The position numbers were made by a program, and so were the translations under genes. DNA of 64,000 nt, taken from positions 8,447 through 72,446 of the forward strand of contig CAZEBZ010000002.1 in NCBI GenBank assembly GCA_964510775.1, in the 5' to 3' direction. This DNA comes from an uncultured Thermodesulfobacteriota bacterium (GTDB lineage Bacteria > Desulfobacterota > GWC2-55-46 > JADFVP01). Under the pieces are notes generated by a model. The model did not search any database. It saw nothing but the letters and a program-made list of their open reading frames with translations, and had not been told where the DNA came from. Shown piece by piece: positions 46,014 through 58,449 of the stretch (position 1 is the stretch's first letter; every line of letters starts with the position of its first letter).

Positions 46014-48623
46014 TCACTTCCCGCCACGGGTAAGGACTTCTTTTACAAAGGTTATCTCCTCGTCTTTACTGCATATCTCTCCATCAAGACGCTTTAGGAG
46101 CAGGGCGGAAATAGTACGCCCTATCTGCGGCCCCTCGGGCACTCCAAGGCCCAGAAGCTCGGAGCCTGTAAGGGCCGGGGCAGTACCCCTTAAGCGGGTA
46201 ATATAAGTAGAGAGGCTCTTCTTAACAGCCTCATCTTCTGTACGGGCCATCATGTATAATAACCCCTCAATGGGCAATAAAGAGAGTAAGGTGTACAGCT
46301 CACTATTGGAAAAGGGAATTTCTCTGCCAAGAGACTTTAAGGCTCTCCGATAGACCCGCCTTCGCGAGATTATATCCACTGTTTTCTTGTCTACTATGGA
46401 GAGCCTTGTTCTAATACCCCTCATCATAACCTCGCTCAGCCCGTCTGTAAGGACAAGAAAGAGAACCACCCACTCTGCGAGCTGCTCACCTGTGTACAAG
46501 AGTTTAAACCAGCCCAGCGCCTCTCTTGCCCTCTCAAAAAAGGCCTCATCTCTCGCGTTAAAGGTAATTCCGCTGTGTATAAGGGGAAGAAGACCGAGCC
46601 GGCCGAGGGCCTTTATTGCCTTTAATGCCGTCTCCTCATCAAGAATGCTTCGCAGCTCCTCAAGGAGACGAGGCCCCGAGAGATGGCTGAAGACCCCGAG
46701 CCTTACGGCCTTCTTAATAAGTTTTTTCGTATGGGGCTCGATAGTAAAACCGAACTTGACGGCAAACCTCACGGCCCTGAAGGCGCGCGTAGGGTCCTCG
46801 ATAAAACTCAGGTTATGGAGTACGCGTATCTTCTTTTCTTTTATATCACGGCGGCCCCCGAAAAAATCTATAAGGCTCCCAAAGGAGTCGGGGTTTAGCT
46901 CCACGGCGAGGGTATTGATTATAAAGTCACGCCTGTATATATCAAGTTTCAGTGAGGACTGCTCTACTGTTGGCAGCGCCCCGGGGCTCTCATAATACTC
47001 AAGACGCGCCGTGGCAACATCTACTTTAAATCCGTCAGGAAATATTAAGACCGCTGTCTTGAACCTCTTATGCGAGCGCACTCTGAGGTTGTTTTCTTTA
47101 GCGTAAGAGCGAGCAAAGGTTATGGCGTCGCCATGCTCGATAACTATATCCACGTCGAGATTATCTCTGCCAAGGAGAAGGTCGCGGACAAAACCGCCTA
47201 CTACATAAGCGCGGCAATTAAGGGCCTCGGCAATGCCGCCAAGAGATGCCAGCCTCTCCATAAGCCACTGCGGAAGCCTCTCTCTCATAAGGTTAGCCAC
47301 TACCTTGACCCTCGGCCCCGTCCCATACTCGCTGCCAATATCCCTCTGCAGGAGCCGCAGTATATCCGTCCTCGTAATAACCCCCCTGACACTGTGCCCC
47401 TGTAGCACAGGTATGAGCCGCTGCCCGTGTCTTACGAACATCTCCCTTATCTCCCCAAGAGAGGTATCCGGCCCTACGCACTCCACATCAGTACTCATGA
47501 AGTCGGCGATTTCCTCATCGCCGAGGCCGTGATATACTGCCTTGTCAATAGTCTGGCGCGTTATCACACCAGTGAAGAGACCGCCCTCAACTACGGGGAT
47601 AGCGTTAATATTATACCTGCCGAGTATTGCCGAGGCCTGCCGTAAAGGTGTATCTGACTCAACAGTAATAGGGGGAAAACTCATAATATCCGCTGCACTC
47701 TCCGTTGGCGGCACAGCTCGCTTCAACGCGCCGAGAAGAGTTGCTCTTGCCTCTGTAAGGGTAAGGCCCTTTAACGTAACAGAGGCGGCATGGGCATGAC
47801 CTCCGCCGCCAAGAAGCTTTAATACATGACCCACGTTTACACCTCTGGCCTTACTTCTCGCAACAACATGAACCCTCTCGCCGGAATCCACAAGCATAAA
47901 GAGAGACTCCATGCCCTCTATATCTCGAATCTTGTGGGCGAGTATGGAGATGTCTCCGCCGTGTTCTGTAAAGGTACCCTCGGCAATCACGATCTCGCGG
48001 CCGCCAAAGGTCACGGTAGTCTCGTTCTTAAGGAGCTCGTTTAAAAAAGATACCTCCTCAGGCGTTAACTCCCTGGTGAGCATATCAGATAAGGCCGAGA
48101 GGTCTGCTCCGGCCTCAAGAAGATAGGCCGCCGCATTAAGGTCATTCACTGTAGTAGAGGGGTAAGTAAGGGAACCCGTATCCTCATAGATGCCTGCCAT
48201 CATTACCGTAGCCTCGGCGGCACTCACCTTCAACCCCTTATCTCGCAATATCTCAGTAATCACCGTAGTAGTAGAGCCGTACTCCTTTACTACCTCAAGA
48301 GTACCAGAGAGGTCTCCCTCTGAGGCGGGGTGATGGTCATAGATATGAACCTCAAGGCCCTCTTTGCCTATTATATCGGCAAAGGCCCCAAGCCTTGCGG
48401 GGCTGCGCACATCAACGAGTATGAGGCGGGTAACAAGGGCAAGATCTATGTCTTTAACCCTGTAAAATGTCTCTTGAAGACCAGCGGTGGAGAGGGCCTC
48501 CTTGAGAGTCTTCTCAAGGGAGCCGGGAAAGACGAGCTTTGCCTGCGGATAGAGCTTATGGGCGCCTATCATAGAGCCCAGAGTATCAAAGTCCGCGTTT
48601 ATATGGGCGGATATAACTTCCAT
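46014..48623 (-). CDS. Multidomain CCA tRNA nucleotidyltransferase: DHH-DHHA1 phosphoesterase + tandem CBS + poly(A) polymerase/CCA head + HD domain
   Basis: 869 aa. The N-terminus carries NrnA-like DHH motifs (HINADFDTLGS, HIYDHHPA) and a DHHA1 segment (GGGGHAHAAS). The middle has CBS pairs. The C-terminal half carries GGFVRDLLLGRDNLDVDIVIE, the class II nucleotidyltransferase signature, followed by a helical tRNA-binding region. Confidence 0.8.
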   Translation of the reverse strand: MEVISAHINADFDTLGSMIGAHKLYPQAKLVFPGSLEKTLKEALSTAGLQETFYRVKDIDLALVTRLILVDVRSPARLGAFADIIGKEGLEVHIYDHHPASEGDLSGTLEVVKEYGSTTTVITEILRDKGLKVSAAEATVMMAGIYEDTGSLTYPSTTVNDLNAAAYLLEAGADLSALSDMLTRELTPEEVSFLNELLKNETTVTFGGREIVIAEGTFTEHGGDISILAHKIRDIEGMESLFMLVDSGERVHVVARSKARGVNVGHVLKLLGGGGHAHAASVTLKGLTLTEARATLLGALKRAVPPTESAADIMSFPPITVESDTPLRQASAILGRYNINAIPVVEGGLFTGVITRQTIDKAVYHGLGDEEIADFMSTDVECVGPDTSLGEIREMFVRHGQRLIPVLQGHSVRGVITRTDILRLLQRDIGSEYGTGPRVKVVANLMRERLPQWLMERLASLGGIAEALNCRAYVVGGFVRDLLLGRDNLDVDIVIEHGDAITFARSYAKENNLRVRSHKRFKTAVLIFPDGFKVDVATARLEYYESPGALPTVEQSSLKLDIYRRDFIINTLAVELNPDSFGSLIDFFGGRRDIKEKKIRVLHNLSFIEDPTRAFRAVRFAVKFGFTIEPHTKKLIKKAVRLGVFSHLSGPRLLEELRSILDEETALKAIKALGRLGLLPLIHSGITFNARDEAFFERAREALGWFKLLYTGEQLAEWVVLFLVLTDGLSEVMMRGIRTRLSIVDKKTVDIISRRRVYRRALKSLGREIPFSNSELYTLLSLLPIEGLLYMMARTEDEAVKKSLSTYITRLRGTAPALTGSELLGLGVPEGPQIGRTISALLLKRLDGEICSKDEEITFVKEVLTRGGK

Positions 48624-48709
48624 GAGAGTATCTTAACACAACTGAACCCCCCGTGCCAAAAGGAGCTGCCGCGGAGGGTTCAATAGATACATCTAAACCT
48701 ATAAAAGTA

Positions 48710-49654
48710 CTAAAAGAGTGTCTTTCTCTTTTTCTTTTTCTTTTTCTGCTTTTTCTTCTTCTCTTCCTCTTCTTTAGCTTTTTTATCGGCCTCGGCCTTG
48801 GCCGCGGCCTTCTCTTTCACAACATCAGCGCCTGTAATCCAGTCCGGTATGGCACGCTCTACGGAGTGACAGCGAAAACAATTTTCAAGAGGAAAGGCCA
48901 CCTTGCCGTGACAAGCGCCGCAGTACTCTCCGTCTATAATCTTCATCATATCCATAGCAGCATTACCGCCCTCTTTCGCCTTAAAGCGCCCCGGGTGACA
49001 GGCCGCGCAGTCAAGTACCTCGGTATGAGACTTATGTGGGAAGAGGACATCAGGCGGGACTGCGGAGAATTTACTGCGGGCATAGGCAGGAAGCACTACG
49101 TCCTTTTTAAGCGCCTTCAGCTGTCCCTTACCGTCAAGAGAGGATTTTGGAGTAATCTTATTCTCATGGAGGGCCTTGACCCAGTCAACCTTGTTGCCAA
49201 AATCACTAGCGGGAAAGCCCCTAAGGGCCTCCTTAATACCGCTATTCTCCACGACCTTCTTACCATAGGAATGGCAGCGATTGCATGTCTTCGTACTAAA
49301 AGCCTCTCTTCCGTTATGACAGGCGCCGCATTTTCCCCCGCTCTCAATATCGCTATGCCTTATATCCGTAAAGCCTGCCTTCCAGGCAAATCCAAGATCC
49401 TTGTGACAGACATTACATGTATAAAACCTCCTGTGCGCCCAGTGTTTAAAGACAACAGGGGCCACACCATCGGCGGCCTTAATATTCTTCTTCATCACAA
49501 CAGAGCCGTACCAGGAAGGCGGTAATACTTTATTGTAACCATCCCCTGTTACGGTGCGGGGCCCTGCCGCTGAGGAAGAGATAAATTGCGGCGCCGCTAT
49601 GACAAATAGAGCAAGAAGAACTATCTCTATGATATGCGTACAAAAACGTTTCAA
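48710..49654 (-). CDS. Hexaheme c-type cytochrome built from c7/c3-like modules, with a poly-lysine C-terminal tail
   Basis: 314 aa with a signal peptide and six CxxCH motifs (CNVCH, CGACH, CNRCH, CAACH, CGACH, CFRCH). The distal His contexts are c3/c7-like (VVFKHWAHRRF, VLFPHKSHTEVL). The C-terminus is KAKEEEEKKKKQKKKKKKRK. Confidence 0.8.
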   Translation of the reverse strand: MKRFCTHIIEIVLLALFVIAAPQFISSSAAGPRTVTGDGYNKVLPPSWYGSVVMKKNIKAADGVAPVVFKHWAHRRFYTCNVCHKDLGFAWKAGFTDIRHSDIESGGKCGACHNGREAFSTKTCNRCHSYGKKVVENSGIKEALRGFPASDFGNKVDWVKALHENKITPKSSLDGKGQLKALKKDVVLPAYARSKFSAVPPDVLFPHKSHTEVLDCAACHPGRFKAKEGGNAAMDMMKIIDGEYCGACHGKVAFPLENCFRCHSVERAIPDWITGADVVKEKAAAKAEADKKAKEEEEKKKKQKKKKKKRKTLF

Positions 49655-49682
49655 TATAAAAAGACCTCCCTGACAAGAATTT

Positions 49683-50072
49683 TTAATAGCCCCTGTGACA
49701 GGCCGAGCACAGACGCAGATAATCTATCCTCAGCATATTTGGGTACTCTGACTTATTATGAGCATCATGGCATGTGTAGCACACAAGCTTACCACTCTTA
49801 TCAAGGGGCATACGCCTGCTTATGTTTATCCTCGGTCTCTTACCTATGGGGTGTTTTGCCACAGGGTGATTGCCGAGCTGCTCCTTATGGCAACGCGTGC
49901 AGAGAGTAACTGTATCTAACTTTAAGGAAGGCATCTCGCTGCCATGACAGTAAGAGCAACTCTCTTTATTCTCCCACTCATGGGGATTGACGCCGTGACC
50001 CGCCGCCAAAGAGACACGCGGCAGGGTAAGCAACGAGAGGAATAAAAAGACTGCAAGAGCGAGACCCGCCAT
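49683..50072 (-). CDS. Small tetraheme c-type cytochrome
   Basis: Four CxxCH motifs (CSYCH, CTRCH, CYTCH, CSACH) in about 130 aa. The start is placed at the internal Met preceding the signal peptide MAGLALAVFLFL; the ORF track starts at 50135. Confidence 0.75.
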   Translation of the reverse strand: MAGLALAVFLFLSLLTLPRVSLAAGHGVNPHEWENKESCSYCHGSEMPSLKLDTVTLCTRCHKEQLGNHPVAKHPIGKRPRINISRRMPLDKSGKLVCYTCHDAHNKSEYPNMLRIDYLRLCSACHRGY

Positions 50073-50214
50073 TATCCACCGCAAATGAGTGCGAGTACTA
50101 CCTCTATTTATCAAGACAGGCGCATAAATGCCCATGACCGTGCCTCCACCCTATCTTTCCATCACAGCGGGCCTTGCTCCGGTGATAATCAAAAAAACTC
50201 ACAGAGAGCCCACT

Positions 50215-52401
50215 CTAATTAGTACAATCAGCAACAGTATTACAGCTGTAGATAGCCGTAACTCCCGTAAGTATATCCGTAAAATTATGCTTACAGACCT
50301 TGTCCGTCAGAGTATTCACTGTTCTAAAGTATAGCTGCGCTCCGGCAGTCGTAGTCGCCGGCACATAGGACTCTATACAGGCCCCGTTCATCATCCTGTA
50401 CCCAAGGGGGCTTGAGCCAACAACAGTGCCCGCCGCCGCGTTGCTGCCATGTATACCCTTCATTACATTATTAACACTGTCATAACCGCCGCCGTGACAG
50501 GACAGGCAGAGATTGCCAAAGTAATTGCTGTCATTACCCGTACCAACGCCTGAGGTATAAAAAGGTGAGGCCGTACCGAGACCATCCACGGGGTGAGGTA
50601 CTCTGGAATAGTTGGCATTAGGCCCGACAAAACCCTCATCGCCATAGACATCGCGGCGGTGGCAGTTATAGCAGAAGTTCTTCAGAGAACCCGCTCCGCT
50701 CTCATTGCTTCTAAGGACCCACTTATTATTTGAGGCATGAGGCCCCTGTGGGTCTGCTGCCGAGTCCGGGCCATGACAATCCGTACACGTCATAGTCGAT
50801 TCATGAGTAACATTGGCAAAACCAGTCCTCGTGCCTGTACCGGGAAAATCAAGATAAGTAAATGTATTAGTAAGACCGAGGCCGTTAATTGGCCAATTGG
50901 GGTTAGCCAAGACAGGCGGACGGTTCTTGCCCTGAATAAATACAGGGTGAAAGCCCTTGTTGTTTACATTAAAGTCATCTGAAATATCCGATTCTTTCAC
51001 AATACTGCCGTTCGCGTTGCCAGAGGGAACAAAAGGCGGCATACTGGAGTAGGCGTAATAGGAATGACACTTCATACACAGGTAGCCCTCAAGGTTATTT
51101 CCGCCGGGCAGAGTTGATGTGAAGTCAACAACCTGATAGGTAAGGGCCGCTCCGGAGAGAGGCCAGACAGAGGGCATTACCCCCCATGAGCCTAACAAAT
51201 TAGGGCCTATGACATCTCCGTCAATACCGCCTATAGTGTGATTACCGGCCTTTGCACCGTGAGGATTATGACAATCGGCGCACTCGGCGTGTCTGTTCAG
51301 ACCAAGGTTAACGGCCGTCTCACGAGCTGGATCGCTTGAGACGGATCTTGAAGGTATATGGGCGCCGCTAACTCCCTTCACATCATGCATTGAGGTCTTA
51401 GTAAAAAGGGCATCTATGTTTTTTGCGGCCACGTTGCCATTATGGCAGTTAAGGCATGTCCACTCCTCATCTACTATTGTATGAGTCACAGGATCCGTAC
51501 CCTTCAAGAGGCTCTTTCCCGCCATGCCTCCATGAGAGCGGTGGCAGGCAAGACAGCTATGCTGCTGCGGTGTATCGTCGGCAAAACCCGCCGCGCCCAT
51601 ATCAAGGTGATAGGGATTCTCACCTGTCTGGTTCCAGAGAGCGATTGAGTCCCTGTGAACTGAGGGATTGGTATCCCAGTATTTTTTAGTATGACAGGCA
51701 GCACAGAGCACGCCGTTCTCAGGGCTCGTTACCATTAAGGCAGGGTATATGGTGCCGTGAGGGTCGTGACAGCTTGTGCATTGCAGCATGTTATTCTTAT
51801 CCAGTTTCACCGCAGCCGGCAGAGCCGATGCGGCCTTAATTTCCACATTGGCAGGTGAAGAGAGTGCGTAATCAAATGAAATGGGATGGTCGTCTCTTAG
51901 ATCCGTCCCTATATAAGCCGTAGAAACGGCAGTAAGTTTACCAGCCGTCACCCCCGGGCCTGTAACAGGCAGGGTAAATGGGCCCGTTACTGATGTGAAG
52001 TTCTTAAGAGAACCAATGGCAATAGTTCCGTCGTGACAGGAGAGGCATAGTTTTGACGAACCCGTGGGCTGGCCCATAGTGGCAACAACAGTATCGCTCT
52101 GATATATATTATAAGTAGCTCCCGAGTCAGCCCTGTTCCAGAGGGGCCCCGATGGGCTGGTATTATGAGGGGCATGACAAAATACACATATCCTTGTAGT
52201 ATTTGCCGTCTTTATCGCAGAGGAAGAGAAAGTGCTGAAGTTGTGTTTTGTCGCGGCAACTGTGGCAAAAACCGGTGTCGCGGCAAAAAACATAACGCCG
52301 GACATCAATAAGCCCAGACAAAAAACCACTGCGTGCGCTGTGCCAGTCCCTCGCAGAAAATTAACAAAAAAACTTCTTTTAATAAACTCGGCGTATCTCA
52401 A
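50215..52401 (-). CDS. Large multiheme c-type cytochrome, 11 CxxCH motifs
   Basis: 728 aa with a signal peptide and 11 CxxCH motifs (CVFCH, CLSCH, CTSCH, CAACH, CLACH, CLNCH, CADCH, CMKCH, CTDCH, CYNCH, CLSCH). Composition is rich in Thr/Ser/Gly/Asn, which suggests surface exposure. Confidence 0.8.
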   Translation of the reverse strand: MRYAEFIKRSFFVNFLRGTGTAHAVVFCLGLLMSGVMFFAATPVFATVAATKHNFSTFSSSAIKTANTTRICVFCHAPHNTSPSGPLWNRADSGATYNIYQSDTVVATMGQPTGSSKLCLSCHDGTIAIGSLKNFTSVTGPFTLPVTGPGVTAGKLTAVSTAYIGTDLRDDHPISFDYALSSPANVEIKAASALPAAVKLDKNNMLQCTSCHDPHGTIYPALMVTSPENGVLCAACHTKKYWDTNPSVHRDSIALWNQTGENPYHLDMGAAGFADDTPQQHSCLACHRSHGGMAGKSLLKGTDPVTHTIVDEEWTCLNCHNGNVAAKNIDALFTKTSMHDVKGVSGAHIPSRSVSSDPARETAVNLGLNRHAECADCHNPHGAKAGNHTIGGIDGDVIGPNLLGSWGVMPSVWPLSGAALTYQVVDFTSTLPGGNNLEGYLCMKCHSYYAYSSMPPFVPSGNANGSIVKESDISDDFNVNNKGFHPVFIQGKNRPPVLANPNWPINGLGLTNTFTYLDFPGTGTRTGFANVTHESTMTCTDCHGPDSAADPQGPHASNNKWVLRSNESGAGSLKNFCYNCHRRDVYGDEGFVGPNANYSRVPHPVDGLGTASPFYTSGVGTGNDSNYFGNLCLSCHGGGYDSVNNVMKGIHGSNAAAGTVVGSSPLGYRMMNGACIESYVPATTTAGAQLYFRTVNTLTDKVCKHNFTDILTGVTAIYSCNTVADCTN

Positions 52402-52559
52402 GAAAAACCTCCCCGCAGATTACATGCCGCTCACCACAAATAATCGCTTTTTCGATTATCTGCCATACAAATAAATAACCGGCTCTTTACTACAAAACCC
52501 CACTCAACAGACTTGGCGCTGCTCTTGGCCAAAGACTCCGGTAATCATCTCTTTGAGAC

Positions 52560-53696
52560 TCATCCGCCGCGCGTATGAATGGGTTCGCTGCCACCGCCTC
52601 CAAGATACTCAAAGACCTCTATCCTTCTATTGTAAGGATCTGCCACAAAAATATTATCAGAGGCGTCTATAAAGACCCCTCCGGGCATCCAGAACATACC
52701 GGGGCCTGCGCCGAGCTTTCCGAAGCTAAGGAGAAAGGCACCCTTGCGGGAAAATATCTGCACAGTATCAAAGATGGCATCGGCCACATATATGTTGCCC
52801 TCGGAATCTACGGCAATACCCTTTGGCCTGCCAAAATCGCCAGTGCCGTCGCCATGCTGACCAAAGCTGCTTAAATATCGGCCATTCATGTCGAATATCT
52901 GAACCCTGTAGTTCATAGAGTCCGTTACATAGAGGTCTCCTCTGGCATCAACAAAGACATCAGTAGGGTAATTAAACTGACCATCTTTGTCTCCACGACC
53001 GCCAAACGTCTTAATAAGCCTACCCTGAAGGTCGTAGGCTATTAGTTCATGCTCGCCAGTATCCACGACATAGAGGCGTTTTCTCGCGGCGTCTACGGCT
53101 AAACCCGTAGGGCGCGTCCCGCCATCAATGGAACGAATGAGCTTGCCTCGCTGATTAAAGACATAGACCTTGCGTGCGCTGGAATCACTGACATATATAT
53201 TATCGGCGTTGTCTGTGGCCACGCCCATAGGAGATATAAGAGGGTCTTTGCCTGCCCTATCGATAAATTCATACTTTTTTTTCTTCTTATCGTATATATG
53301 AACCCTCTTCAGGACAGTATCGGCAACGATAATCCTGCCGGAGACGTCTACGGCGATACCATAGGGCTTCACCATATCTCTCTTGGCGGCGCCAACAAGG
53401 ACATCGACGATTTTTTTGAAAAGACCTCTCTTGATTCCAAGATCCTCGGGCCTTGCAAGGGATATATCAAAGGCAATACGCGCAGGCGCCGGAGGTGAGG
53501 GCCATATAAGGGGCTTATGCTTAAAGTCTTTTGATTGCTGAGCTGATATGTCCGGAGTACCGCATCCAACTGAGGTAAGGAGCAGGGTAAGCACAAGGAG
53601 ACACAGACATGACAAAGAGGCCGCTTCGCGTACAGAACGCACCGAAGCATCACGCCGTTGCATGAAAAAATCATAAAAAGCAGAATATATTCTCAT
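52560..53696 (-). CDS. NHL-repeat six-bladed beta-propeller protein, probable lipoprotein
   Basis: 378 aa with six NHL repeats (IYVSDSSARKVYVFNQRG, LYVVDTGEHELIAYDLQG, LYVTDSMNYRVQIFDMNG, IYVADAIFDTVQIFSRKG, IFVADPYNRRIEVFEY and others) and an N-terminal signal with Cys (LTSVGC). Confidence 0.8.
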   Translation of the reverse strand: MRIYSAFYDFFMQRRDASVRSVREAASLSCLCLLVLTLLLTSVGCGTPDISAQQSKDFKHKPLIWPSPPAPARIAFDISLARPEDLGIKRGLFKKIVDVLVGAAKRDMVKPYGIAVDVSGRIIVADTVLKRVHIYDKKKKKYEFIDRAGKDPLISPMGVATDNADNIYVSDSSARKVYVFNQRGKLIRSIDGGTRPTGLAVDAARKRLYVVDTGEHELIAYDLQGRLIKTFGGRGDKDGQFNYPTDVFVDARGDLYVTDSMNYRVQIFDMNGRYLSSFGQHGDGTGDFGRPKGIAVDSEGNIYVADAIFDTVQIFSRKGAFLLSFGKLGAGPGMFWMPGGVFIDASDNIFVADPYNRRIEVFEYLGGGGSEPIHTRGG

Positions 53697-53717
53697 AACT
53701 TCACCAGAGCCCCGCGC

Positions 53718-54356
53718 TTATTTTCTGTGGCAGTACTGGCAGATATCCGCCCCCTCAGCCCTGAGACGAGTCTCCTGATCCGCGCCCCACTCCGCCCTGC
53801 CGTAAAGAAGACCCCTCTCGTGAGAATTATGGCATGTCCCACAAAATATCTTACCCGTAGCGGGATCAAGAGGAAGGAGCAGCGGAAGCTCCTTCTTTAT
53901 AAGCCTCATATTCTTGTATATCAACGCCGGGGGTTTAGCAAGATGACTAGGTGCCACAAAACCGCTCATCGCCGGGCCAACGCCCTCTGAGCCGGGGTGC
54001 TTTTTTATTAAATGACAACTATAACAATTTTTATTAATATCCTCGGAAAATCTAAGTTTCATATTTACATCAGATTTAAGATTCTGAGTATCAGGCATAA
54101 CCTTGTGACAGATAAGACACTTTGACCATAAAATCTCACCCTCGTCATTTATCTGCTCATGAGGATTAATAAGAGACTTTCTCGCCGCAGTTACCTTATA
54201 AGAGAGCGGTGGAGGAGCGTCCTTATCCGCCGCTTCCGCTTTTGCGGCTTTCTTTGCCGCAAAGGCATCACCGGAATTGAGCATAATAATCAGCCCGAGG
54301 ACTATTAGGGTCTGCATTATTCCTCTGTATAAAACTTCTCGCATGAAATAACCCAA
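53718..54356 (-). CDS. Tetraheme c-type cytochrome
   Basis: 212 aa with a signal peptide and four CxxCH motifs (CLICH, CYSCH, CGTCH, CQYCH). Confidence 0.75.
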   Translation of the reverse strand: MGYFMREVLYRGIMQTLIVLGLIIMLNSGDAFAAKKAAKAEAADKDAPPPLSYKVTAARKSLINPHEQINDEGEILWSKCLICHKVMPDTQNLKSDVNMKLRFSEDINKNCYSCHLIKKHPGSEGVGPAMSGFVAPSHLAKPPALIYKNMRLIKKELPLLLPLDPATGKIFCGTCHNSHERGLLYGRAEWGADQETRLRAEGADICQYCHRK

Positions 54357-54437
54357 CCTTTAGGGCGTCCGGCCAGATGCCGGAGAGCCGTACAGAGTTT
54401 ATTCCTTACACAACAAAGATTAAACAACCATTAGAAG

Positions 54438-55589
54438 CTAGCGCCCAAAGGCATAGACATATCCATCCTTGGAGGCGGCAAAGAGCCTCTCACCGGAGAT
54501 GGCCGGAGAGCTGTGGACACCTCCGCCCGTAGCATAACTCCAGCTTATCTCGCCAAGAATAATGTCAATAGCATAGATACGACCGTCCTCGGCGCCAACA
54601 TATATAAAACCATTGGAGGTAACAACAGGCGTGGAGTTAACAGGGGCCGGAAGCTTGTAATCTGCGAGCCGTCTGCCGCGCCTCATACCATAGGCCCTTA
54701 TATGACCATCCTTAAAGGCAAGGTAAATCTTGCCTCCAGCCACAACAGGAGAAGCATATACCATGGAGCTGGCGATGTTTTTTCTAAAAACAATCTTACC
54801 CGTCTCAGCATCAACACCAAAGAGCTTACGCTCTCCAGAGACAAAATAAACCTTGCCGTTCTTTAAGACAGGACTCGTGTATATAGACGAGTGGTTAATC
54901 ACCGCCCAGTTTCTGCCGCCGCTCTTGCCGTCCTGCGAATAAAGAACACCGTTCTTGCCGGCGAAGAGAACAGCGTCTTTATAGTACAGCGGTGATGCGT
55001 ATATATCGCTGTACTTCTCGTAATCAAGCGTCCTCATACGCCAGATCCGCTTTCCCGTCTTGGCGTTAAGGGCATAAAAACGCAGGTCTGATGCTCCAAA
55101 AAAGACCATGCCGCCGCCTACTACCGGTGAGGTAAGGATACTACCGTCTGCGGTGAAGCTCCACATAAGCCTGCCGTCCGAGGCATCAAGACAATAGAAC
55201 TTACCGTCCTTTGAACCAAAGAACACATGACCGTCTTTAACGGCGGGCGTAGAGAGTATCTCGCCGCCAGTGGAAAAGCTCCAGAGCTTTGCGCCCGTAG
55301 TCTCATCAAGGGCATATAGTTTTTTGTCGTATGAACCGATAAATACCTTGCCGCCCCATACAACGGGAGATGAATAAACAGGCCCATCAGTAGCGAACTT
55401 CCATAAAACCTTCAGAGGGGGCCGAGGAGCCATAGGGGCAAAAGAGGAATGATTCCTGTCCTTCATGAACATGGGCCAATCTGCGTGGCCGCTGCCCGGA
55501 AGAAAAAGTGCGGAGAGTGAACAAATAATTACAGCGGTAAGTATTTTAATAAATTCAGAGCCGTATTTTCTTCCGTAGACTTGTCTCAT
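54438..55589 (-). CDS. PQQ-repeat (BamB-like) beta-propeller protein
   Basis: 383 aa with a signal peptide and about eight repeats of the PQQ-propeller pattern (SSPVVxxGxVFxGSxDGxLYALDAxTGKxxW). Confidence 0.8.
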   Translation of the reverse strand: MRQVYGRKYGSEFIKILTAVIICSLSALFLPGSGHADWPMFMKDRNHSSFAPMAPRPPLKVLWKFATDGPVYSSPVVWGGKVFIGSYDKKLYALDETTGAKLWSFSTGGEILSTPAVKDGHVFFGSKDGKFYCLDASDGRLMWSFTADGSILTSPVVGGGMVFFGASDLRFYALNAKTGKRIWRMRTLDYEKYSDIYASPLYYKDAVLFAGKNGVLYSQDGKSGGRNWAVINHSSIYTSPVLKNGKVYFVSGERKLFGVDAETGKIVFRKNIASSMVYASPVVAGGKIYLAFKDGHIRAYGMRRGRRLADYKLPAPVNSTPVVTSNGFIYVGAEDGRIYAIDIILGEISWSYATGGGVHSSPAISGERLFAASKDGYVYAFGR

Positions 55590-55598
55590 ATACTATAA

Positions 55599-56207
55599 TC
55601 AAACCTTGAATGTTAAGAGCTTTTTCAGCGCAGAATCTGTTTTTGAACTCATACTCTCAAGTCTTTCAATAACCTCGGTCTTTACTGACATTCTTCCCGA
55701 AGCGCTCCTGTAGCACACAAGCCCCCTCGCAAGACCATTTATCTCCGCAACCTCTGCCTGAACCGCGGTAAAGCGCTCGTCAAATAGCTCCATAGAATCA
55801 TTAAAGGCGCCACGAGGCGACTCAAGGTGATGAGGCAGCCCTGCAATCCTAACAGTTAAGTCACCACCCTGTCCGGCATTCTTCATGGCCTCTATATAAA
55901 AAGCGAGCCCTCTCTCAAGACTCCTCGTCAGCACATATCCGAAGACAAGACCAGCGATAATTATAAAGGGCACACTAAAGGCCGAGAGTTTCCATATAAC
56001 AGGCCAGATTATATCCGAGGTAGAACTTGCCTGCAAGTGAATTTTATAGAGCCTCTCATCAAGCCTGCCCTCAATAAGAATATAGGCGGCTAAGAGGTCT
56101 AAAAAAAGCCCGCAGCTTACGAGTACGGCGAGACCAATTACAAAACGGCCCTGAAGGGATCTGTTTATAAAAAACCGCCTTCTCCTCAACCACGGATACT
56201 TACCCAT
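55599..56207 (-). CDS. Small membrane protein: 2 TM helices + HAMP-like linker + C-terminal coiled coil, no output domain
   Basis: About 202 aa. The first TM is FVIGLAVLVSCGLFLDLLAAYILI and the second is FSVPFIIIAGLVFGYVL, followed by a HAMP-like segment ending AFNDSMELFDERF. It is a paralog in architecture of the protein at 57131-57745. Confidence 0.5.
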   Translation of the reverse strand: MGKYPWLRRRRFFINRSLQGRFVIGLAVLVSCGLFLDLLAAYILIEGRLDERLYKIHLQASSTSDIIWPVIWKLSAFSVPFIIIAGLVFGYVLTRSLERGLAFYIEAMKNAGQGGDLTVRIAGLPHHLESPRGAFNDSMELFDERFTAVQAEVAEINGLARGLVCYRSASGRMSVKTEVIERLESMSSKTDSALKKLLTFKV

Positions 56208-56261
56208 CTTACACCTCATAAAGTTAACATAAAATCAATTAAAATTCAACTACGTGCCCGC

Positions 56262-57077
56262 TTACTTTACATGGCAGGCAAGACAGAGATTACTCCCGTA
56301 ATTATCCATAACGAGCTGCGCGTGCGTACCTGAGTAGGGGCTGTGACAGGTGCCGCAGCCCACCATGCCGCCAAAAAACTTTATCTGCGGCGGTAGCGAC
56401 GCCATGTCCCTGTAGGCGCCCCTGTATTTTCTCTTTGCCTCGGCGTAGGATACACCTACGGGGTGCGTCAGACCTGTAATATTACTGTGGCGACTCCTGA
56501 AAATATCCTGATTTTCCACCATCGCGGAGCTGCCTACTATGGCATCATGACAGCTCAGACACTTTATGCTCATCTCGTCCAGACGGGCGCCGCCCTGAGC
56601 CTGAGGGGAATAAGATGCCTTAAGAGGCCTTGGAGCGCCGCCTATATGGGCATTTACACCGGAGAGAGTGTGTATCATATTATCATCAAGGCCGCTGTGG
56701 CATAATACGCAAAACCCCTGACCTCCGGCGCTTGTCCTCAGGTGACTGGGGCCAAACCCCTGATGATGTATCTCGTGACAGGTGAGGCATGTAACCATAC
56801 CTCTCCAATCCAAGGGAAAATAAGAAGGCACCTTCATCGCGGGCGTAATGTCAACGGGATGAGTAAGCCCCTCCTCCTGGCGGTGACACTCCATACATAA
56901 CCCTGTTATATCCTTTCTTAATGTAGGTTTTTTATCTCCTGCGCCGGGAATTTTAATATGACAATCCAGACATCTCCCTGTAAAATCATGATAAGCGCCT
57001 GCCGTCCTACCGGGAACTTTAGCCGAGAATACCAGCGCACCAGCGATTAAAACAAGCAATAAGAGTACCTTCTTCAC
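56262..57077 (-). CDS. Heptaheme c-type cytochrome
   Basis: 271 aa. The GTG start is preceded by an AGAGG Shine-Dalgarno sequence. It has a signal peptide and seven CxxCH motifs (CLDCH, CMECH, CLTCH, CVLCH, CLSCH, CGTCH, CLACH), with a GLTHPV distal-ligand motif repeated twice. Confidence 0.8.
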   Translation of the reverse strand: MKKVLLLLVLIAGALVFSAKVPGRTAGAYHDFTGRCLDCHIKIPGAGDKKPTLRKDITGLCMECHRQEEGLTHPVDITPAMKVPSYFPLDWRGMVTCLTCHEIHHQGFGPSHLRTSAGGQGFCVLCHSGLDDNMIHTLSGVNAHIGGAPRPLKASYSPQAQGGARLDEMSIKCLSCHDAIVGSSAMVENQDIFRSRHSNITGLTHPVGVSYAEAKRKYRGAYRDMASLPPQIKFFGGMVGCGTCHSPYSGTHAQLVMDNYGSNLCLACHVK

Positions 57078-57114
57078 CTCGACAAAACCTCTGAATTGTA
57101 TTAGCCCCGCACAT

Positions 57115-57123
57115 GGGGGGGGG
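57115..57123. repeat. Homopolymeric G tract (G9; C9 on the coding strand) 38 nt upstream of the heptaheme cytochrome start
   Basis: acatGGGGGGGGGcactcg, inside the 53-nt gap between the HAMP-protein gene and the heptaheme cytochrome gene. Confidence 0.7.
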
Positions 57124-57130
57124 CACTCGT

Positions 57131-57745
57131 TTATTGGGCGGTCTTTATTGCTGAGATTCTTGAACTCAGCTCTTTTACGAGCCCCTCAAGCTCCCTTATA
57201 CCCTCGGCAGCTTCCCCCTCAAGACACTCACCGCTCCCCTCAAGCTCCTCAGCCTCTCGCAGAAGGGCACAGAGACTGCCGCTCTGTTTTTTTACGGCCA
57301 TTAAAGACTCCCTGGACTCTACGACAAGCCCTGTGAGTCTCTCTGTCATTTTATTCTTTTCTCTTGCCAGAAGAGCCAGTTGGTCACTCTCACGAAAAGA
57401 CGTCTCTACCGTAAGGTCTCCTGAGGCAAGAAGCTCAAGGTCGCGTGTAAGCCTGAAGATCGGGCCAGCCATCTTATGAGAGAAAAATATCGAGGTCAGG
57501 GCGATAAAGACTACGGTAACAACCATAGTGGCTATGGAATAGACTGAGGCCAATACGAGAGAGAAGATATTTATCCTCAGTGAGTATATGGCATACATGG
57601 CCTCGCCATAGGAATGGCCAAGGTCACGGCCCGTAACAAGATAAAGACCGATAGTGAGGGCCGAGAAACCGGCCGCCGTAAGGAGACAGAACTTTATCAG
57701 GAATTTAAGCTGAAAACTGCCCTCAAGCAGTCTAACACTCCTCAT
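57131..57745 (-). CDS. Small membrane protein: 2 TM helices + HAMP-like linker + C-terminal coiled coil, no output domain
   Basis: 204 aa. The TMs are at about residues 15-37 and 60-88, followed by HKMAGPIFRLTRDLELLASGDLTVETSFRESDQLALLAREKNKMTERL (HAMP pattern) and a coiled coil. A GGAGG Shine-Dalgarno lies 8 nt upstream of the ATG. Confidence 0.5.
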   Translation of the reverse strand: MRSVRLLEGSFQLKFLIKFCLLTAAGFSALTIGLYLVTGRDLGHSYGEAMYAIYSLRINIFSLVLASVYSIATMVVTVVFIALTSIFFSHKMAGPIFRLTRDLELLASGDLTVETSFRESDQLALLAREKNKMTERLTGLVVESRESLMAVKKQSGSLCALLREAEELEGSGECLEGEAAEGIRELEGLVKELSSRISAIKTAQ

Positions 57746-58289: not shown

Positions 58290-58312
58290 TTTTTTCTTAT
58301 ACTCTCATAAAT

Positions 58313-58340
58313 AAAAAAGGGCCCTTAAGGGCCCTTTTTT
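58313..58340. terminator. Bidirectional intrinsic terminator (A6-GGGCCC-TTAA-GGGCCC-T6)
   Basis: A perfect 6-bp GC stem with a 4-nt loop is flanked by an A-tract and a T-tract. It lies 23 nt downstream of tRNA-Cys (plus strand) and about 110 nt downstream of the minus-strand M20 peptidase gene. Confidence 0.6.
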
Positions 58341-58449
58341 ATTATTCTTTATTCTTAATAATTAATTTAACATCCCTTCCGGAGCCCACACCTCTCACTC
58401 TCTCATCTGCCGCAGCGGCGTGGTAACAGCATAGGCTCCTGCAAAAAAA

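Follow-up and report, generated by a model that had tools for sequence, protein, structure and literature searches.

OmcE is a tetrahaem cytochrome whose subunits polymerise to form the extracellular nanowires of Geobacter and Desulfuromonas, and according to the literature OmcS shares its haem arrangement. Petersen et al. describe a minimal OmcE cluster that consists of OmcE itself, a large beta-barrel and two each of multihaem cytochromes and beta-propeller lipoproteins. Anchoring, initiation and termination of the nanowires and their link to the periplasm were stated as a gap, with no candidate for an OmcE-like tip in the OmcE operons (Petersen et al. 2025). Undecahaem cytochromes have been described from the uet and occ clusters. 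In Candidatus Tenderia electrophaga, the uet cluster encodes the tetrahaem UetA, the peptidyl-prolyl isomerase (PPIase) UetB and the 28-stranded barrel UetC, furthermore the c7-type trihaem cytochromes UetD, UetE and UetG, the NHL proteins UetH and UetI, the undecahaem UetJ and then ccsAB (Eddie et al. 2022, bioRxiv 10.1101/2022.05.06.490989). UetJ, annotated as a pseudogene at NCBI, was predicted to be a linear haem wire and has also been reported in Gallionella (PMC10734462) and Leptothrix (PMC13386937). For Candidatus Dechloromonas occultata, metaproteomics during Mn(III) reduction revealed OccP, a protein of 922 amino acids (aa) described as an 'extracellular undecaheme' (Szeinbaum et al. 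2020, bioRxiv 10.1101/695007). The published literature that we found treats UetJ and OccP as porin-cytochrome components, apart from the OmcE nanowires, and we found no statement in the UetJ/OccP and OmcE literature that the undecahaem starts with a module of the OmcE family. Here we describe an undecahaem c-type cytochrome of 728 aa encoded in a DNA stretch of 64,000 nucleotides (the window) from an uncultured Thermodesulfobacteriota bacterium (assembly GCA_964510775.1, contig CAZEBZ010000002.1). We assign this protein to the UetJ-type family, its first four haems to the OmcE family and the following seven to an autonomous end-module.

The undecahaem gene and its conservation

The open reading frame (ORF) is located on the minus strand (Table 1), and the plus-strand reading of the same interval is riddled with stops. 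TTG serves as start codon; the internal alternatives GTG25, TTG32, ATG33 and ATG37 would strip the positively charged n-region off the signal peptide. Eleven CxxCH motifs are present at aa 72, 119, 208, 233, 283, 316, 374, 442, 539, 577 and 632, compared to a mean of 0.043 and a maximum of 3 in 20,000 shuffled sequences of the same composition. In a motif scan of the protein, neither CxxCK nor CxnCH variants were seen. The most abundant residues are Gly (10.0 %), Thr (9.1 %), Ala (8.9 %), Ser (8.4 %) and Asn (7.4 %), and the mature form has a mass of ~72 kDa, or ~79 kDa with 11 haems, and an isoelectric point (pI) of 6.3. The motifs of haems 1, 3 and 7 are found in the contexts CHAPHN, CHDPHG and CHNPHG, that of haem 5 in CHRSHG. 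By inspection, the signal peptide has an n-region with K8, R9 and R17, a hydrophobic core and a predicted cleavage site between TPVFA and TVAATKH; hydrophobicity is highest at aa 22-44. The signal contains no lipobox, its sole Cys, C28 (VVFC), being kept in 3 % of the homologues. The predicted cleavage places a conserved TKH at a distance of 7 residues from the N-terminus of the mature protein. OmcE has the same arrangement, with the common pattern (signal)-x5-TKH(D/N)(L/F)S. A preliminary description of this gene, made from the DNA letters alone, had reported eleven CxxCH motifs in 728 aa, a composition rich in Ser, Thr, Gly and Asn, CH(A/D/N)PH(N/G) contexts at several motifs and a Sec-type rather than a lipoprotein signal. 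Motif count and shuffle control, composition and inspection of the signal agree with these statements, with the gene on the minus strand and Ala among the abundant residues.

The undecahaem is a real, conserved gene. Metagenomes and metagenome-assembled genomes labelled Thermodesulfobacteriota or 'Deltaproteobacteria' contain an identical protein (P0001) and over 100 homologues of full length. Seventy aligned homologues with 37-80 % identity all keep the 11 CxxCH motifs, and two of them have 12. Besides the His of the haem motifs, 12 His are invariant in this alignment (H53, H79, H172, H215, H249, H290, H339, H348, H371, H381, H485 and H555), and two further His are kept at 87 % in the clade of the window protein. 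Ligands are therefore sufficient for a bis-His ligation of essentially all haems, which supports the earlier proposal of a multihaem electron-transfer cytochrome with His-His ligated haems.

An OmcE-like tetrahaem module at the N-terminus

In a phmmer search against all PDB chains, aa 29 to 239-241 aligned end to end with chains of two solved filaments, 9yuq_N (E-value 1.9e-22, residues 5-218 of 218) and 7tfs_A (E-value 1.6e-20, residues 7-232 of 232). A profile of the undecahaem family retrieved 7tfs with an E-value of 3.7e-42 and 9yuq with 1.4e-36. Both entries were named as OmcE filaments on the basis of the Foldseek entry description and of a publication on the bundled OmcE nanowire of Desulfuromonas soudanensis, which is 9YUQ (bioRxiv 10.1101/2025.10.22.684050); 7TFS is OmcE of Geobacter sulfurreducens (GSU0618). 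The whole OmcE chain aligns to aa 47-241 of the undecahaem. The order of the four CxxCH motifs and the four distal His are the same, and the shared sequence features extend from the TKH after the signal, in the form TKH(D/N)(L/F)S, via CxFCH.PH, WN(R/H), CLSCHDG, DDHP(I/V)(S/N)F and CxSCH..H to a terminal CxxCH of the doubled-CXXCH type. The haem sites C72/C75/H76, C119/C122/H123, C208/C211/H212 and C233/C236/H237 are, together with H53, H79, H172 and H215, invariant in alignments of 70 and of 108 sequences. An hhalign comparison of the N-terminal module of the family with the small tetrahaems encoded in the canonical clusters described below resulted in a probability of 100 and an E-value of 7e-55, and the eight Cys and eight His of the module are in register with the invariant His of the cluster-encoded OmcE-like tetrahaems. 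On these alignments, the N-terminal module is assigned to the OmcE family. The complete protein differs clearly from OmcE, which has a length of ~200 aa and stops two residues past haem 4, whereas the undecahaem runs on for 487 aa with seven more haems. It is not a stand-alone tetrahaem and thus not an OmcE.

The tetrahaem at the OmcE position in the cluster of Geomonas oryzisoli (CP076723, locus L084, 4065-4973, 302 aa) matched the solved OmcE structures with E-values of 1e-8 and 2e-6, far weaker than the N-terminal module of the window protein (2e-22 and 2e-20).

An autonomous heptahaem module at the C-terminus

The remaining two thirds of the protein were modelled by AlphaFold2 (AF2) with a predicted local distance difference test score (pLDDT) of ~90 over aa 250-728, and aa 242-728 had no relative among the PDB structures, neither with the single sequence nor with a profile. 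A phmmer search of this part against 1.84 billion cluster representatives retrieved 834 proteins at E ≤ 1e-3, 416 of them at E ≤ 1e-10, and the match was typically located at the extreme C-terminus of proteins of very varied size. Three architectures were observed. The module may follow directly on a signal peptide (P0342, 483 aa, 7 CxxCH), it may follow long non-haem or Pro/Thr-rich stretches (P0245, P0246 and P0248, 7 CxxCH each), or it forms the last seven haems and the Cys tail (GYRxxNGA...C...C) of giant cytochromes with 46-61 CxxCH motifs. As the module can stand by itself, follow a region without haems or provide the last seven of 46-61 haems, the C-terminal part of the undecahaem is, judged by these matches, an autonomous heptahaem end-module. 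One further carrier originates from Anaerolineae.

The giants P0301, P0341 and P0376 have 3062-4629 aa and 46-61 CxxCH motifs and present Ig-like (Big_5) or repeat domains ahead of the terminal module. P0376 (4629 aa, 61 CxxCH, Big_5 Ig-like domain) corresponds to MCL4079188.1 from Parvivirga hydrogeniphila, a Gram-positive bacterium with an obligate Fe(III)-reducing metabolism; the protein is absent from the clusters discussed in the description of this organism (PMC9686372). The last ~400-490 aa of such giants (e.g., MCL4079188.1/WP_267192627.1), with seven CxxCH motifs and the GYRxxNGA...Cys tail, are homologous to aa 242-728 of the undecahaem with 31-46 % identity. The giants differ in their N-terminal parts, which are unrelated (Ig-like or Pro/Thr-rich, with dozens of other haems), in their monoderm hosts and in the lack of a clear full-length OmcE-like module; the OmcE-type profile gave weak partial matches in P0376, with domain E-values down to ~5e-7. 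The Cys tail was also present in P0376, P0301, P0341, P0276, P0248 and others and thus belongs to the heptahaem module family. In the undecahaem, the tail Cys are conserved in 67-97 % of the homologues and beta strands are predicted at aa 638-692. The four Cys likely form two disulfides, which would fit an extracytoplasmic protein.

The UetJ-type family and its gene clusters

One genome per species of the GTDB was scanned with the family alignment. At least 600 candidate stretches were obtained, at least 589 were confirmed as undecahaem relatives, and the best 80 loci were fetched. Forty of the 43 loci with an extracted ORF code for 11 CxxCH motifs in the same order; for the other three a different or truncated ORF had been picked. 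The typical size is 557-610 aa. More than 10 phyla are represented, the carriers including Planctomycetota, Verrucomicrobiota, Bacteroidota, Ignavibacteriota, Calditrichota, Nitrospirota, Zixibacteria, Beta- and Gammaproteobacteria, Desulfobulbia and Geobacteraceae. Among the cultured carriers are Geomonas spp., Oryzomonas sagensis, Malonomonas rubra, Geobacter sp. AOG2, Desulforhopalus sp. IMCC35007 and Planctomycetales ZRK34. The annotations of the family do not go beyond 'cytochrome c3 family' or 'doubled CXXCH' protein in any of them.

ORFs were called in all loci and searched with the cluster proteins of the window and with profiles of recurrent neighbours. This revealed a canonical gene order: an OmcE-like tetrahaem (205-276 aa), an NHL propeller, a 5-haem cytochrome, a protein of ~650-700 aa, a second NHL propeller and the undecahaem. 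The small tetrahaems matched the OmcE structures with an E-value of 5.8e-46. The proteins of 650-700 aa have a signal peptide and end in an aromatic residue, which is the classical beta-signal of outer-membrane proteins, and are predicted to be large outer-membrane beta-barrels. An NHL gene lies directly upstream of the undecahaem in 57 of 69 loci outside the clade of the window protein and in all 8 loci of this clade (in the following, the window clade). Among the 42 loci outside the window clade that cover at least 6 kb upstream, the barrel was present in 33 and the small OmcE-like gene in 28. The complete genome of Geomonas oryzisoli presents the same cluster order, with a SurA-like PPIase nearby. 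In content, the canonical clusters correspond to the minimal OmcE cluster and to the uet cluster, and the undecahaem is therefore to be seen as a UetJ-type cytochrome. The window protein, with eleven CxxCH motifs, a signal peptide and no other domain, is by these features a member of this widespread family. The G. sulfurreducens proteins GSU0615/0616 were considered as orthologues, which was not confirmed; the literature provides no haem counts, and the species is not among the best 120 matches.

The canonical members of ~560-600 aa (loci L014-L083, e.g., L037:9923-11623) have an 11th motif PCxxCHDPHG and in addition an invariant terminal CxxxCH; thus they probably bind 12 haems and the name undecahaem may undercount. 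The clade of the window protein lacks PCxxCHDPHG, has CLSCH at the position of the canonical CxxxCH and keeps the Cys-rich tail. The 728-aa form also has loop insertions compared to the canonical members, some of them common to betaproteobacterial UetJ-like proteins. These relatives (P0112-P0120 and loci L003 and L010-L013) have 37-41 % identity, the same order of 11 motifs, an NHL gene upstream and ResB/CcsA downstream.

UetJ of Candidatus Tenderia electrophaga was set beside the window protein by description: both have 11 CxxCH motifs, a signal peptide and no other annotated domain, both are encoded directly after NHL protein genes, and c7-type trihaems are encoded in the same cluster. The nearest relatives outside the window clade (37-40 % identity) stem from Betaproteobacteria of the Sulfuricella/Sulfurimicrobium type, with ResB/CcsA downstream as in uet. 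The differences are larger on the cluster level. The window cluster (48710-57745) lacks the UetA tetrahaem, the UetB PPIase, the UetC barrel, the cupredoxin UetF and ccsAB, and shares with uet only c7-type trihaem domains and an NHL protein. The window protein itself is ~60-170 aa longer than typical UetJ-type members and has a different C-terminus. An NHL propeller lipoprotein is likewise encoded alongside in OmcE clusters, which differ from the window cluster in having a barrel and glycosylation genes. OccP, likened by description only, probably belongs to the same family, as members of ~840-960 aa with 11 CxxCH motifs exist among the homologues; its cytochrome-rich cluster also encodes six-bladed NHL proteins and is different in comprising 19 genes, 10 of them for cytochromes. 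The window protein is thus a variant within the known UetJ-type family. The undecahaem of the OmcE clusters itself combines an OmcE module with a portable heptahaem cap.

Proposed function and alternative explanations

We consider the protein to be probably a modular haem wire of the OmcE/UetJ type that is exported by Sec and transfers electrons over bis-His ligated haems. The linear geometry of the wire, the direction of the electron flow, the contacts to partners and the localisation are those that we infer in the following scheme. Electrons of the quinol pool would pass to the c7-type and small multihaem cytochromes that the cluster provides in the periplasm, enter the 11-haem chain at one end, leave it at the other and be passed outward. 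The NHL lipoprotein may hold or chaperone the undecahaem at the outer membrane. By way of the OmcE-like end, family members could dock head-to-tail onto OmcE-type haem chains; in canonical clusters this end would face the OmcE filament and the other end the barrel or the substrate. In the window clade, the enlarged 728-aa protein would be the most distal redox component encoded, placed in the outer periplasm or at the surface.

Several observations weigh against an OmcE/UetJ-type wire. UetJ and OccP are known from omics and prediction only. AF2 modelled the N-terminal module with a pLDDT of 33-64 in two runs (full length with 70 sequences, module alone with 108), and in Foldseek searches with these models, in which the haems are not modelled, 7TFS was the sole PDB match, with E-values of 4e-5 and 7e-7 and a probability of 1.0 at template modelling (TM) scores of 0.35-0.44. 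Low AF2 confidence is common for haem-scaffolded coil modelled without haems; the OmcE homology therefore rests on the sequence and not on the modelled fold. The window clade lacks partners of the canonical clusters: the hidden Markov model of the barrel family (~650-700 aa) found nothing among the ORFs of the window or in loci L001-L009, a free OmcE-like tetrahaem gene was absent from the window and from all 8 window-clade loci, and neither secretion genes nor an inner-membrane quinol dehydrogenase were found in the cluster or in the window. Haems 1-4 and 5-8 align in hhalign with a probability of 96.5-98 over 103-118 columns, with motifs 1/5 and 2/6, the distal His and motifs 3/7 and 4/8 in register, but a control with an unrelated 5-haem family gave E-values of 1e-10 to 1e-13 over 31-64 columns, an inflation by doubled-CXXCH motifs. 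The repeat is suggestive only. A triplication of the tetrahaem unit was rejected, as the third segment aligns only partly and the controls show motif-driven inflation.

A surface exposure of the undecahaem, proposed in the preliminary description together with a role as terminal reductase, is plausible, although we would put it slightly short of an even chance. It is favoured because both modules have extracellular relatives, in the case of the OmcE filaments by experiment. The periplasm is favoured because no conduit or secretion gene is located nearby. The surface location, the periplasmic location and the terminal position in a nanowire discussed below overlap as readings.

A strictly periplasmic wire or electron store, bridging redox partners of the inner and the outer membrane or buffering together with the cluster cytochromes, is a possibility that we hold with reserve. 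The plain Sec signal without lipobox and the lack of a sorting tail would suit it, as would the other cytochromes of the cluster, which all look periplasmic, and the absence of a barrel gene from the window and the 8 window-clade loci and of secretion genes from the 64 kb. On the other side, the characterised members of the OmcE family are extracellular filaments, giant cell-surface proteins of monoderm bacteria terminate in the heptahaem module, family members in other lineages are found together with a giant outer-membrane barrel, and an NHL lipoprotein of the outer-membrane type is the invariant partner of the undecahaem. Export genes, e.g., those of a type II secretion system, need not cluster with their substrates. 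If the protein were a periplasmic wire only, it would simply be one more multihaem cytochrome of an ordinary kind.

The undecahaem has also to be considered as terminal subunit, at tip or base, of an OmcE nanowire, or as a self-polymerising 'branched' subunit, joined in either case via His-haem ligation between subunits. We regard this as unlikely. The N-terminal module is homologous to OmcE over the full length, its four distal His are all invariant, including that of the TKH by the cleavage site, OmcE-like tetrahaems are co-encoded in the 28 of 42 well-covered loci mentioned above, and the heptahaem module is typically terminal in longer cytochromes. Petersen et al. ask for an OmcE-like tip with extra exposed haems and report none in the operons. 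Equally doubtful, in our view, is the detailed form in which the heptahaem module would be a porin-threaded anchor or a solvent-exposed reductive tip, the OmcE-less clade self-polymerising or acting as monomeric mini-wire. The clusters of the window clade contain no free OmcE-like gene (0 of 8), and OmcE stops right after haem 4, so that a C-terminal extension may not fit within a filament. The number of spare His was tried as a test of His donation to a neighbouring subunit; with 12 invariant extra His for 11 haems in the window protein and 16 for 12 probable haems in the canonical members it did not discriminate and is not decisive.

The broader form of this idea, in which UetJ-type undecahaems, that of the window included, are the missing terminal subunit of OmcE-type nanowires, with the OmcE module inserted into the haem chain of the filament at the contact used between its subunits and the heptahaem module as barrel-threaded base or as exposed tip, and in which the barrel-less and OmcE-less clade makes a 'one-polypeptide nanowire' as monomer or homopolymer, is improbable as well. 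If true, it would unite the Uet/Occ porin-cytochrome clusters of metal oxidisers with the OmcE nanowire clusters of metal reducers. Apart from this reading, the present alignments show that an undecahaem regularly found in OmcE operons, and known elsewhere as UetJ, opens with an OmcE-family module and closes with a portable heptahaem cap shared with giant surface cytochromes of Gram-positive iron reducers. It is a concrete and testable candidate for the terminal subunit of the wire, and it links the Uet/Occ clusters of Fe(II) or cathode oxidisers and Mn(III) reducers with the OmcE clusters of Fe(III) reducers. The window clade, without barrel and free OmcE in the cluster, offers a natural experiment on the undecahaem acting alone.

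The resemblance to outer-membrane cytochromes of the OmcB/OmcC class seen in the preliminary description did not hold. As an OmcB/OmcC- or MtrC/UndA-class lipoprotein, the undecahaem would work outside the cell as partner of a porin-cytochrome conduit. This class resembles it in size and number of haems, and the summed score for PF22113 (MtrC/MtrF domains II/IV) of 35 bits exceeds the cut-off of 30, but the score is made up of sub-threshold motif matches with no single stretch passing. TIGR03507, the OmcA/MtrC family model of NCBIfam, gave no match, and MtrC, UndA or OmcA chains were not retrieved in the PDB searches with the single sequence or the family profile. The signal has no lipobox, and a porin or an MtrA-like or OmaB-like partner does not adjoin. 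On the N-terminal third, Pfam and NCBIfam recognised generic cytochrome motifs only. OmcZ was not matched in the PDB searches, and OmcS (PDB 6EF8) was matched on the motif level only (family profile, E-value 8e-6, 25 residues). OmcS, OmcZ, MtrC, UndA and OmcA have in common with the window protein that they are multihaem proteins, known from extracellular electron transfer. By these comparisons the OmcB/MtrC class is essentially refuted, the kin being OmcE for haems 1-4 and UetJ-type and heptahaem proteins for the rest. A periplasmic multihaem enzyme akin to octahaem nitrite, tetrathionate or sulfite or hydroxylamine oxidoreductases, homology to which, with a catalytic haem, the preliminary description had named as the finding that would speak against its own proposal, is as remote, despite the many haems in a large soluble exported protein and the long haem-free loops, given that no NrfA, ONR, OTR, HAO or MccA similarity was found by sequence or profile in PDB, Pfam and NCBIfam (no multihaem enzymes at E ≤ 0.01 in Pfam/NCBIfam or E ≤ 10 in PDB beyond NrfB-type motif noise), that all motifs are canonical CxxCH, that the invariant distal His are no fewer than the haems, and that NrfH or NrfBCD-type partners are absent from the cluster.

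The gene cluster in the window

The features of the undecahaem and of its neighbours are compiled in Table 1. The cluster of the window clade is conserved with 50-80 % protein identity in loci L001, L002 and L004-L009; it is complete in L001, L002, L005, L006 and L008 and runs off the ends of the other loci. The gene order is two-transmembrane (two-TM)/HAMP-like protein, 7-haem cytochrome, two-TM protein, PQQ_2 propeller, 4-haem cytochrome, NHL lipoprotein, undecahaem, 4-haem cytochrome and hexahaem with two c7-type domains, followed by a gene similar to an A-adding tRNA nucleotidyltransferase. A terminator-like hairpin precedes the cluster and no convincing one was seen within it, which agrees with a single operon or a small number of operons. 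Elsewhere, the window carries core chromosomal genes, with a dcw cluster, secDF, tgt/queA, the gene for RNase G and radical-SAM genes.

Table 1 Features of the undecahaem gene and of the surrounding cluster (window coordinates)
Feature	Coordinates	Strand	Basis
Undecahaem c-type cytochrome ORF, 728 aa/codons	50215..52401	minus	ORF list, motif count and shuffle control
Shine-Dalgarno sequence GGAGG	52408..52412	minus	6 nt 5' of TTG start; read from sequence
Signal peptide aa 1-46, Sec/signal peptidase I type	52264..52401	minus	by inspection; alignment to 7tfs_A/9yuq_N
OmcE-like tetrahaem module aa 47-241, haems 1-4, distal His H53/H79/H172/H215	51679..52263	minus	phmmer, family profile, hhalign
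Heptahaem module aa 242-640, haems 5-11	50482..51678	minus	AF2 and phmmer of module alone
C-terminal beta-rich tail aa 641-728, Cys C675/C703/C720/C726	50218..50481	minus	Cys conservation, AF2 strands
NHL-repeat six-bladed beta-propeller, probable lipoprotein (..LTSVGC/G)	52560..53696	minus	Pfam NHL 2e-29; directly upstream of undecahaem
Tetrahaem cytochrome, 212 aa, Sec signal	53718..54356	minus	4 CxxCH; generic cytochrome matches only; syntenic
Second beta-propeller (PQQ_2/BamB-like), exported	54438..55589	minus	Pfam PQQ_2 1.7e-60; syntenic in L001, L002, L005-L009
Two-TM membrane protein, 206 aa, no Pfam/NCBIfam match	55599..56219	minus	two hydrophobic segments; synteny conserved
Heptahaem periplasmic cytochrome, 271 aa	56262..57077	minus	7 CxxCH; PDB 7tfs 1.5e-4, short stretches only
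Two-TM and HAMP-like membrane protein, 204 aa, first cluster gene	57131..57745	minus	NCBIfam partial histidine-kinase HAMP matches; TM segments
Tetrahaem cytochrome, 150 aa, directly downstream of undecahaem	49683..50135	minus	4 CxxCH; Paired_CXXCH_1; syntenic
Hexahaem cytochrome, two c7-type trihaem domains and poly-Lys tail	48710..49654	minus	TIGR04257 nanowire_3heme 7e-35, two stretches; syntenic
Palindromic terminator-like hairpin, boundary of upstream peptidase gene and cytochrome operon	58310..58343		15-bp stem (6 G-C pairs), T-runs on both strands

A hidden OmcE subunit among the small cytochromes of the cluster was considered and rejected: the proteins of 271 and 150 aa matched with E-values of 1.5e-4 and 3e-3 through the terminal doubled-CXXCH only, and the 212-aa protein had no match. 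The hexahaem likely donates or carries electrons in the periplasm. Its extreme poly-Lys tail (...EEEEKKKKQKKKKKKRKTLF) at the C-terminus might bind anionic surfaces such as lipopolysaccharide, minerals or DNA. The mature undecahaem is mildly acidic, whereas all six other soluble cluster proteins checked have a pI of 8.7-9.6, a difference compatible with an electrostatic docking of the partners on the undecahaem.

Two antisense ORFs, 48653-49525 (plus strand, 290 aa) and 49634-49909 (plus strand, 91 aa), overlap the cytochrome genes; both are almost certainly not genes, because their translations are of low complexity (poly-Leu/Phe opposite the poly-Lys tail). The hairpin is a perfect palindrome, AATAAAAAAGGGCCC-TTAA-GGGCCCTTTTTTATT, and resembles a bidirectional intrinsic terminator beside an M20 peptidase gene. 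Directly downstream of the cytochrome cluster, 46014-48623 (minus strand) codes for an 869-aa DHH-DHHA1-CBS-PolyA_pol fusion, which holds this position in all window-clade loci reaching that far; the A-adding tRNA nucleotidyltransferase model fits it best, with 917 bits, well short of the cut-off of 1440 bits. At the other end of the cluster (55599-57745, minus strand), two two-TM proteins of ~205 aa flank the 271-aa 7-haem cytochrome. The upstream membrane protein and the 7-haem cytochrome recur beside canonical OmcE/UetJ clusters of unrelated phyla (L015, L023, L043, L073 and L079), among which the second two-TM protein was recognised only in L015. This set may be a membrane-anchored module for redox sensing or electron entry.

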